This document shows, in pieces, positions 29,576 to 34,169 of a DNA stretch of 64,000 nucleotides (its first letter is position 1; each line of letters begins with the position of its first letter). Made by a program: the position numbers and the translations under genes. The DNA is from a phage. Location: the sequence record PZ179883.1. The stretch is one strand, 5' to 3'. A model generated the notes under the pieces. That model was given only the letters and a program-made list of their open reading frames with translations, searched no databases and was not told where the DNA came from.

Positions 29576-32500
29576 ATGGCTACTTTAAAACAAATACAAT
29601 TTAAAAGAAGCAAAACCGCAGGTCAACTTCCTGCTGCTTCAGTATTAGCCGAAGGTGAATTGGCTATTAATTTAAAAGATAAAACAATTTTCACAAAAGA
29701 TGACTCAGGCAATGTTATAGAATTAGGTTTAAAATATGGAGGAACAATTGATGGTTCTTTAACTGTTAATGGAAATATAATTGGAAATTTAACAGGTAAC
29801 GCTGCAACTGCAACGAAATTAAAAACAGCACGAAAAATTAATGGTATATCATTTGATGGGTCAAAAGATATCACGCTAACTCCATCTGACATAAATGTCA
29901 ATAGCACAACGTTTATAAAAAATAACGGCGAATTACCGGTTGATGCTAATTTAGATGAGTATGGGCCCATTGAAGAATATCTTGGTGTTTGGTCGAAATC
30001 TACTTCAACAAATGCGCAACCGGCAAATAAATTCCCAGAAGAAAATGCCGTAGGTGTACTAGAAGTATTTGTGGCCGGTCAATTTGCTGGTACTCAGAGA
30101 TATACTGTAAGATCTGGTAACGTATATGTTCGATCTTTGTCTGCTAAATGGAACGGTGTTAACGGTCCGTGGGGAGTTTGGCGTAATGTTCAAGCGTCAA
30201 CTCGTCCACTTTCACAAACGATTGACCTTGATAGCTTGGGAGAATTAGAACATTGTGGCTTATGGCGAAACAGTTCAAGCGCAATCGCATCATTTGATCG
30301 CCATTATCCAGAAGAAGGATCAGCCGCACAAGGATTTTTAGAAATATTTGAAGGTGGTTTATACGCGAGAACTCAGCGTTATACAACTAGATCTGGTGTT
30401 GTTTATACTCGCTGTCTTGCTGCTGCATGGGATGCTTCTGCGCCTAAATGGGGACCGTGGCAACAAGTCGGTAATGTCACACCGGCGACTTTCTATGACG
30501 GAGACCTGAATGATTTTAAAGCTCCTGGGTTATATAACATTTTAGGCACTGACGCAGTTACTAACCGTCCAGTTGCAGAAGGCGTTCCGGTTGAGATGAC
30601 CGGATTGCTTGAGGTTAAACAGCGTGCTTCCGGTGGCGCTATTTTCCAACGTTTCACTACCGCAGGAACGGGTGCAACTACGCGATCTCGCGTGTTTGAA
30701 CGTGCAATGACAAATAATATCTGGGGAAATTGGTACGAAGTATATACGTCCTATTCTATGCCAATTACTTTGGGTATGGGTGGTATTAAAACTCAATTAG
30801 CGGAGCTAGATTGGCAAACATTTGATTTTGTTCCTGGTAGTATGTTTAGCGTTCCTTTGAACAAAATAAAGAACATGCCAGCTAATATGGATTGGGGTAC
30901 GATTGACGGAAACTTAATTATGTTTTCTGTTGGTCCTAGCGAGCACACCAGCACAGGACGTACTGTTCAGGTTTGGCGTGGTACTGTATCCCAGACAAAC
31001 TACCGTTATTTTGTCGTTCGTGTATTCGGTAATTCAGGAAATAGAACTTGCACAGTTCGACGCGTTGTTCTTGAAGATGGTCGCCACAAATGGACAGCGC
31101 AACAAGATTTTAATGGTGCAGTTAACTTCGGTGCTCCTACCAATTTTAACTCTACTGTTAACCTTAATAACACTACCACATTTAAAACAGAAGTTAAATT
31201 CCGCTCATCTAATGCATTCCGTATGTATGGCGGAAAATTTGGTACAATTTTCCGTAATGATGGAGAGAGTCTTTATATTCTTTCTACCGACGAAGATGAC
31301 CAAGATGGAAACTTTAATACAAATAGACCTTTCCGTTATGAATTAAGAACTGGCGATGTTACTTTAGGTGGTGCTAGTGGTGCTAACGTTTTAAAATTAG
31401 AACGTAGTTCGCTTGCTGCCACCTTTGGTGGTGATGTTAACTTAAATAAAGGTACACTGACGTTTGAAGCTGGTCGCTTAAACTCCCGCGATTATTTTAA
31501 ATTTAACCATTGGGGTGATAGTAATAATGCTCGTGATAACATCATCCAGTTAGAAGATAGTCAAGGCGCCCATTTTTCCACTGAACGTACTTTAGCGACA
31601 GGTGCAATTAAAACTCGTTTCTTTGGCGAAACATTCACTGATGGTACATTATACCTAAATCAGATGAATAATAGCTCTGAACGATTCTCTATTAATAATT
31701 GGGGAAATTCAGAAGTTGGTCGCGCGGCAGTGATGGAAGTCAGTGATTCCAAAGGTTATCACTTCTATACGGAACGCAGGACAGATAACAGTTTGAATTT
31801 TGATGTTGCTGGCAATTTTACTGCGCATGGACCTTCCGGAATAACCATCAAAAACTCAACTGGTGCACGACATATCTGGTTTAGAGATGATAGCGATGCA
31901 GAAAAGGCTGCTATCTGGGCTACAGATGAGGGTATTTTACATATTCGCAATAATCATGGGGGTTCATTTAGTCATCACTTCCAGGGTGCAATGATTCTAG
32001 CGGGAGAGCGTGTTCCATATAATGGTGAATACGCTCTTATCCGTGGTAATATTTCCGGTGGTGCATGGGTAGACTGGCGAGATCGTCCGGCTGGATTGTT
32101 GGTAGACTGTCAGGACTCACGAAATCAAGCATATAACATTTGGAAAGCTACTCATTGGGGCGAACAGCACCTTGCGGCGATGGGTGTTCATGCTGGCGGT
32201 GGTAATCCTCATGTTGTATTGCATGTGGGTGGGAATGATTATGCATTTGCATCTAACGGTGATTTTACTGCTGGTGCTGCTGTATATTGTAACGACGTTT
32301 ATATTCGTTCTGACCGTCGTCTGAAAATTAATGTTGAAGACTACGAAGAAAATGCGGTGGATAAGGTAAATAAACTCAAAGTTAAAACCTATGATAAAGT
32401 TAAATCTCTTTCTGACCGCGAAGTTATCGGCCATGAGATTGGTATTATCGCACAGGATTTGCAAGAAGTATTACCGGAAGCTGTTAGCACTTCTAGTGTC

Positions 32501-32662
32501 GGATCTCAGGATAACCCAGAAGAAATTTTAACAATTTCAAACTCTGCTGTGAACGCGCTTTTAATTAAGGCCATTCAGGAAATGAGCGAAGAAATTAAAG
32601 AATTGAAAACGCCTCTCTTTACTAAAATTGCTCGCAAAATTAGTAAATATTTTAAATTCTAA
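29576..32662 (+). CDS. 37: long tail fibre distal subunit gp37 with C-terminal intramolecular-chaperone-like domain
   Basis: 1028-aa ORF; last ~117 aa (from [14 protein letters not shown]...) resemble the self-cleaving chaperone domain of T5 L-shaped fibre and endosialidases. Confidence 0.88.
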
Positions 32663-32668
32663 CAACAA

Positions 32669-32686
32669 GGGGGAAATGCCCCCTTT
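32669..32686 (+). terminator. hairpin after gene 37 (weak terminator or mRNA-stabilising stem)
   Basis: GGGGG-AAAUG-CCCCC followed by only UUU; 6 nt after the gene 37 stop. Confidence 0.35.
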
Positions 32687-32698
32687 GGAGTATAAATT

Positions 32699-33481
32699 AT
32701 GGCAGTAGTTGGAGTTCCTGGCTGGATTGGAAGTTCAGCCGTAAATGAAACGGGCCAGCGCTGGATGAGTCAAGCAGCTGGTCAATTAAGATTGGGTGTT
32801 CCTTGCTGGATGAGTCAATTTGCAGGTCGCTCAAGAGAAATTATTCATACACTTGGAGCAGACCATAACTTCAACGGTCAATGGTTCCGAGATAGGTGTT
32901 TTGAGGCAGGTAGTACACCTATAGTGTTTAATATCACTGGAGATTTAGTATCATATTCTAAAGATGTTCCTTTATTCTTCATGTACGGAGATACACCGAA
33001 TGAATATGTTCAACTGAATATACACGGTGTAACGATGTATGGCCGTGGCGGGAATGGCGGTAGCAATAGTCCTGGCTCAGCTGGGGGTCATTGTATTCAA
33101 AATGATATTGGTGGGAGACTAAGAATTAATAATGGCGGAGCTATTGCTGGCGGCGGTGGCGGCGGCGGTGGCGGATATTATTCTCCTTTTTCACAAATGA
33201 GATTGACCTTTGGCGGTGGCGGCGGTCGTCCGTTTGGCGCTCCGGGCGGATCTATTGATATGCAATCAGGAGCAACTGCTGGTACTATTTCTGCGCCAGG
33301 CGCAGGGTCTGTGAACGGTATCTATAACGGCGGGTCTGGTGGTGAAGTTGGATCCGCAGGGGGTAGATGTAATATTCGTGGTCAAGGATATGAATACGAT
33401 GGCGGTGCTGCTGGTTATGCCGTCATAGGGTCTACACCGACATGGCAAAACGTTGGAGCAATATATGGTCCAAGAGTATAA
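32699..33481 (+). CDS. 38: gp38 receptor-recognising adhesin (T2/T6 type)
   Basis: 260-aa ORF with poly-glycine motifs ([16 protein letters not shown]) flanking variable segments; T4 gp38 is a 183-aa chaperone instead. Confidence 0.82.
33149..33226 (+). repeat. GGC/GGT glycine-codon simple repeats in gene 38
   Basis: GGCGGCGGTGGCGGCGGCGGTGGCGGA at 33149..33175 and GGCGGTGGCGGCGGT at 33212..33226. Confidence 0.7.
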
Positions 33482-33512
33482 TTTTGAATAAATATCCTTA
33501 AAAGGAGGGTCT

Positions 33513-34169
33513 ATGGCAGCACCTAGAATATCATTTTCGCCCTCTGATATTCTGTTGGGTGTTCTAGATCGCTTGTTCAAAGATAACGCTACCGGGAATG
33601 TTCTTGCTTCCCGGGTAGCTGTCGTAATTCTTTTATTTATGATGGCGATTGTTTGGTATAGGGGAGATAGTTTCTTTGAGTACTATAAGCAATCAAAGTA
33701 TGAAACATACAGTGAAATTATTGAAAAGGAAAGAAATGCACGCTTTGAATCTGTCGCCCTGGAACAACTCCAGATAGTTCACATATCATCTGAGGCAGAC
33801 TTTAGTGCGGTGTATTCTTTCCGCCCTAAAAACTTAAACTATTTTGTTGATATTATAGCATATGAAGGAAAATTACCTTCAACAATAAGTGAAAAATCAC
33901 TTGGAGGATATCCTGTTGATAAAACTATGGATGAATATGCAGTTCATTTAAATGGACGTCATTATTATTCCGACTCAAAATTTGCTTTTTTACCAACTAA
34001 AAAGCCTACTCCCGAAATAAATTACATGTACAGTTGTCCATATTTCAATTTGGATAATATCTATGCTGGAACAATAACCATGTACTGGTATAGAAATGAT
34101 CATATAAGTAATGACCGCCTTGAATCAATATGTGCTCAGGCGGCCAGAATATTAGGAAGGGCTAAATAA
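33513..34169 (+). CDS. t: holin T
   Basis: 218-aa ORF MAAPRISFSPSDILLGVLDRLFKD... with one N-proximal transmembrane helix and a large periplasmic domain; matches T4 T. Confidence 0.9.
   Translation: MAAPRISFSPSDILLGVLDRLFKDNATGNVLASRVAVVILLFMMAIVWYRGDSFFEYYKQSKYETYSEIIEKERNARFESVALEQLQIVHISSEADFSAVYSFRPKNLNYFVDIIAYEGKLPSTISEKSLGGYPVDKTMDEYAVHLNGRHYYSDSKFAFLPTKKPTPEINYMYSCPYFNLDNIYAGTITMYWYRNDHISNDRLESICAQAARILGRAK

Follow-up and report, generated by a model that had tools for sequence, protein, structure and literature searches.

The long tail fibre locus of this phage raises the question of how its distal subunit, gp37, matures and comes to carry an adhesin: does gp37 end in an intramolecular chaperone that is cut away so that gp38 can cap the fibre as in T2 and T6, or is the fibre tip of the T4 kind? 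The locus lies in a stretch of phage DNA of 64,000 nt (record PZ179883.1; hereafter the window), which is Tequatrovirus-like and, over its first 25 kb, closest to phages OES_C-1, OES_C-2 and OES_C-3 (96.6%), PST (95.7%) and fPS-65 (95.4%). Judged against the T4 record, the genes around gene 37 stand in T4-type order, encoding gp34 (1289 aa), gp35 (371 aa), gp36 (216 aa), gp37 (1028 aa), gp38 (260 aa) and holin t (218 aa). Gene 37 itself (29576–32662, plus strand) encodes a long tail fibre distal subunit precursor of 1028 aa and 113.1 kDa, and at the DNA level it shares 95% identity with the long tail fibre genes carried by phages OES_C-1, OES_C-2 and ECO07P4.

The original prediction placed a self-cleaving chaperone domain in the last ~117 residues of gp37, beginning with SDRRLK, and a cut between R911 and S912. 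Translation of 32309–32662 yields 117 residues and a stop codon, starting with SDRRLK; the S912 codon opens at nucleotide 32309, directly after R911, and K917 comes five residues further on. The predicted coordinates, residue numbers and motifs are therefore exact. A minus-strand ORF in the same region (32117–32464, 115 aa, TTG start) was rejected as spurious, being unsupported and antisense to the strongly conserved chaperone-coding region.

gp37 ends in a Peptidase S74 chaperone domain

The chaperones of T5 pb1 and of the K1F endosialidase are founding members of Peptidase S74, and the Pfam profile for this family (PF13884, "chaperone of endosialidase") matches the C-terminus of gp37. Searched with the whole protein, the match has an E-value of 1e-14 and a score of 55 bits, and with the C-terminal 128 aa an E-value of 8e-16 and a score of 58.5 bits, against a curated gathering cut-off of 22 bits. 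The match covers profile positions 1–57 of 58 and residues 912–970 (32309–32485, plus strand), with profile position 1 falling exactly on S912. The predicted resemblance to self-cleaving chaperones thus stands far above chance.

The whole domain, as delimited with an AlphaFold2 model and Foldseek, comprises residues 912–1028 (32309–32659, plus strand; 13.2 kDa), that is, the last 117 of the 1028 residues and the extreme C-terminus of the distal subunit. The monomer model of this segment, a domain that works as an intertwined trimer, has a mean pLDDT of 86.2 and shows an alpha/beta body that leads into a helix of 37 residues. This long C-terminal helix (DSSP helix 78–114 of the model; residues 989–1025, 32540–32650, plus strand) is expected from the model to form the trimeric coiled-coil stalk of the chaperone. 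When the model was compared with the PDB by Foldseek, hits 1 to 11 were all intramolecular chaperone (IMC) domains, led by the MyRF ICA domain (7DC3, E 2.8e-6, TM 0.73), the GA-1 neck appendage (3GUD) and endoNF (3GW6); the search gave nothing convincing beyond these 11, hit 12 lying at E 0.45. A phmmer search of the PDB found S16 gp37 (6F45, E 8.7e-13), in an alignment spanning YC.D...SDRR[IL]K to the C-terminal coiled coil and covering tip, cleavage site and chaperone, with weaker matches to a phage tail fibre (8JOV) and again to the MyRF ICA domain (7DC3).

For prevalence we relied on tblastn searches of phage genomes with the 117-residue domain, since a protein-level search returned 28 mostly partial homologues, which served for alignment and modelling. 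The tblastn search matched 1236 phage records, among them relatives of the T-even phages, T5-like fibres, phages of Klebsiella and Vibrio, and streptococcal PblB proteins and hyaluronidases; several of the matches are annotated "chaperone of endosialidase" or "peptidase_S74". A helical, charged C-terminus might be imagined to resemble such a domain by chance or composition, with no chaperone present. The profile E-value of 1e-14, the 1236 tblastn records, some already carrying the family name, and a fold search that is significant for IMC structures only all speak against this explanation, which we consider refuted and give practically no credence. Residues 912–1028 of gp37 are a Peptidase S74 C-terminal intramolecular chaperone domain, with direct support for both its identity and its predicted fold. 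The assignment is correct but already known, such domains being familiar from T2/T6-type phages and S16, and the gp37 domain raises no new biological question.

A conserved Ser-Lys dyad marks the predicted cleavage site

Members of the S74 family cut with a dyad of a serine at domain position 1 and a lysine five residues on, a spacing that is present in gp37. S912 and K917 align with S911 and K916 of the K1F endosialidase, S1264 and K1269 of T5 pb1, and S1243 and K1248 of T2 gp37, and S912 aligns with the second serine of S^SDRRIK, the motif at which S16 gp37 is cut. Across an alignment of 21 homologues the lysine (column K6) is invariant, and S1, D2, R4 and L5 are each at least 90% conserved, which directly supports a conserved dyad in gp37. 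K917 (32324–32326, plus strand) is the predicted general base, and the predicted scissile bond, set by the alignment of S912 with the K1F, T5, T2 and S16 serines, is R911/S912 (32306–32311, plus strand).

The T5 protein provides the experimental model for such a cut. In pb1 (chaperone residues 1264–1396) the cut falls between Thr1263 and Ser1264, Lys1269 activates Ser1264, which departs with the chaperone, and the domains self-cleave when expressed alone in E. coli, whereas the S1264A protein stays uncleaved (PMC4690869). Like the gp37 domain, the chaperones of T5 pb1 and K1F (3GW6) sit at the C-terminus of a trimeric fibre or spike, carry the dyad serine at position 1 with the lysine at +5, and combine an alpha/beta body with a coiled coil; their release follows folding. 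Identity of the gp37 domain to T5-like domains is, however, only ~40%, and to K1F it is much less. The T5 and K1F domains are also longer (133 and 154 residues, respectively), with insertions that the 117-residue gp37 domain lacks or has in much shortened form and that in T5 include the long beta-hairpin "tentacles". Folding is sensed in T5 by Arg1250 of the neighbouring chain together with Asp1239, forming an oxyanion hole (PMC4690869), and sensor residues of this kind, a neighbouring-chain Arg and an Asp, are described for K1F too; the gp37 region upstream of the cleavage site could not be aligned with T5 or K1F.

Closer relatives place the cut at the same position. PMC7917993 describes the last 113 residues of S16 gp37 as autocleaved after trimerisation at S^SDRRIKK, baring the docking surface for gp38. 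The corresponding motif here is R^SDRRLKI, so that Arg takes the place of Ser just before the cut, and the five residues before it are DVYIR rather than the DLNVS of S16. In Yersinia phages fPS-2, fPS-65 as well as fPS-90, whose gp37 has been aligned with that of S16 and predicted to be cleaved at DVYIR^SDGRLKI (PMC7917993), the junction is one residue off the DVYIR/SDRRLKI of the window. At the level of prediction, the proposed R911/S912 cut agrees with the T5, S16 and fPS sites alike.

It could be that the C-terminus is removed in trans, by a distinct protease of the host or the phage, and not by Ser-Lys autoproteolysis. The classical work on T2 gp37, published in 1986 (Drexler, Riede and Henning), is cited in the relevant part of PMC3157838 as "proteolytic processing" with the enzyme unnamed, which leaves room for such a protease. 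Against this, the T5 domain, produced on its own in E. coli, cuts itself and is stopped by a single Ser-to-Ala change, S16 gp37 is described as autocleaved (PMC7917993), and the catalytic residues are conserved in the gp37 of the window. We therefore regard cleavage in trans as very improbable and favour autoproteolysis.

An adhesin-type gp38 supports a T2/T6-type fibre tip

Downstream of gene 37, gene 38 (32699–33481, plus strand) encodes a 260-aa T2/T6-type tail-fibre adhesin. It matches the tail fibre adhesin family GP38 (PF05268) over residues 47–260 (E 2e-71) and the attachment domain Gp38_N (PF21721) over residues 1–42 (E 1.2e-20), the latter with Trp at positions 9, 22 and 37, and shares 99.6% identity with the gp38 proteins of ECO07P4 and vB_SsoM_113. 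The predicted long, adhesin-type gp38 is borne out by these two profiles. S16 offers a structural parallel (6F45), with gp37 and gp38 genes in the same position and a gp38 adhesin composed of N-terminal attachment and glycine-rich domains.

T4 differs at both genes. Its gp37 occupies the same locus and has a homologous proximal part, with a Gp34_trimer-type match in both proteins, but its tip, at the C-terminal end, is made of Collar and Phage_fiber repeat domains. Tested directly with the S74 profile, T4 gp37 gave no match at E≤1, in keeping with the expectation that it has no chaperone domain. T4 gp38, unlike that of the window, is an assembly factor of 183 aa whose match to the lambda gpK-type Caudo_TAP family stays below threshold (E 0.076), and is not an adhesin; T4 gp37 itself carries the adhesin function and depends on gp38 and gp57 for chaperoning (PMC3157838). 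Conversely, Pfam searches found neither a Collar nor a Phage_fiber match, the marks of a T4-type tip with its His-rich, needle-forming fibre repeats, in the gp37 of the window, and assigned its gp38 to the adhesin family and not to Caudo_TAP. These profile results directly support the type of gp38 and the contrast with T4, and with the S74 domain on gp37 they support the view that the distal tip is assembled in the T2/T6 manner.

In T2 and T6, according to PMC3157838, the C-terminus of gp37 is likewise removed proteolytically and the fibre is capped by a gp38 adhesin of ~260 aa. The junction itself follows a common VYIR/SD.RLK pattern, reading NDVYIR/SDRRLK here, NVYIR/SDIRLK in T2 and DVYIR^SDGRLKI in the fPS phages. 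T2 gp37 differs in being 1341 aa long and in having a 99-residue domain. At this end gp37 of the Mosigvirus phage vB_EcoM_SQ17 matches in full, its last 170 residues being 100% identical to those of gp37 here. The proteins vary in length (1028 aa in the window, 1073 aa in SQ17 and 1341 aa in T2) and have the C-terminal junction in common; the length differences fall in the shaft, which fits modular shaft repeats. A further difference separates the T2/T6-type tip from those of T5 and K1F, where the exposed tip binds the receptor itself; here, binding takes a separate adhesin.

Predicted maturation of gp37

The cut in gp37 is expected between R911 and S912 because homologues, namely T5 pb1 and S16 gp37, are cut there. 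By analogy with these proteins, gp37 very probably undergoes trimer-dependent autocleavage at R911-S912, followed by release of the domain and capping of mature gp37 by gp38. In this scheme, the trimerising chaperone domains, each with its alpha/beta body and C-terminal coiled coil, would bring three gp37 chains into register, allowing the beta-structured fibre tip to fold. Once the tip had folded correctly, S912, activated by K917, would attack the R911-S912 peptide bond, and each chain would release a 13.2 kDa fragment beginning with SDRRLK. This would lay bare the flat ...DVYIR end of the mature trimer, 911 residues per chain, for gp38 to cap. A requirement for the general chaperone gp57A has reportedly been seen for S16; gene 57A presumably lies outside the window, if the T4 gene map is a guide.

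The predicted mature protein comprises residues 1–911 (29576–32308, plus strand; 99.9 kDa), all of it 5´ of the start of the S74 profile, and terminates in ...NDVYIR. By analogy, this end is expected to be the surface that receives gp38: its DVYIR is identical to the end of the fPS-phage gp37, the predicted tip for docking of gp38 (PMC7917993).

Alternatively, the domain might be a degenerate S74 relative that aids trimerisation and then stays on, so that mature fibres would contain gp37 at its full 1028 residues, with gp38 sitting at or beside the retained domain. Cleavage of gp37 in this phage is a prediction from homologues, and the domain ends in 17 basic residues that the experimentally studied domains lack, so the subtype could in principle behave differently. 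Yet the dyad Ser and Lys are intact, canonically spaced and conserved across homologues, and the DVYIR before the site is shared with the fPS phages, in which it is the predicted docking surface. In addition, the S16 gp38 docking surface exists only once the domain is gone (PMC7917993), and T2/T6-type gp37 is reportedly cleaved (PMC3157838). Retention of the domain is thus very unlikely, and autocleavage with subsequent capping by gp38 remains our preferred reading. For annotation and engineering, this reading sets the mature end of gp37 at R911, with a predicted product of 99.9 kDa and a predicted released fragment of 13.2 kDa. It also makes gp38 the receptor-binding protein, so that gp38 rather than gp37 should be consulted for the host range of the phage.

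A basic amphipathic tail distinguishes the domain subtype

The 17 residues at the very end of gp37 (1012–1028; 32609–32659, plus strand), extending beyond the coiled coil, form a subtype-specific basic amphipathic tail with a hydrophobic moment of 0.63 and a net charge of +5. Model confidence is lower here (pLDDT 60–64). In an alignment of C-termini, the tail is absent from the T2, S16, T5 and K1F domains, and the tail-bearing form is common to gp37 here and to RB3/RB5/RB6-type phages. We rejected the notion that the tail is a stray product of a frameshift or an assembly artefact, because it is conserved at 87–100% identity in 225 T-even-type phage records; among the matches listed (40 of the 225), every one that is annotated places it in a tail-fibre gene. 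The tail might, for instance, tether the assembling fibre to the membrane or to a chaperone (gp57A), or affect the timing of chaperone release. That it has a function of its own, which would set the domain apart as a functional variant and not an ordinary S74 chaperone, nonetheless seems to us improbable.

Exchange of the tip module and the gene 37-38 spacer

Nucleotide identity to the Mosigvirus phage SQ17 is unevenly distributed across the locus. Positions 31458–33029 of the window, which run from ~400 residues before the end of gp37 through its chaperone domain to about residue 110 of gp38, are 95.9% identical to SQ17, compared with 72–83% in the aligned flanks. Because of this difference in identity, it appears that the fibre tip, its chaperone and the attachment domain of gp38 have been exchanged between genera as one recombination module. 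Such an exchange fits the lock-and-key subtypes described in PMC3157838. Since these parts appear to form one module, fibre-tip swaps should transfer the tip of gp37 together with its chaperone domain and the N-terminus of gp38.

Within this region, a 36-nt spacer (32663–32698) separates genes 37 and 38. It contains a G+C-rich hairpin, GGGGG-AAATG-CCCCC, followed by GGAG and by TATAAATT directly before the gp38 ATG. A terminator scan of 32200–33600 gave weak hairpin matches only, around the GGGGG-AAATG-CCCCC stem and flagged on the minus strand, and a promoter scan of the same interval gave nothing over the shuffled expectation. The TATAAATT before gp38 resembles the T4 late-promoter box, TATAAATA.
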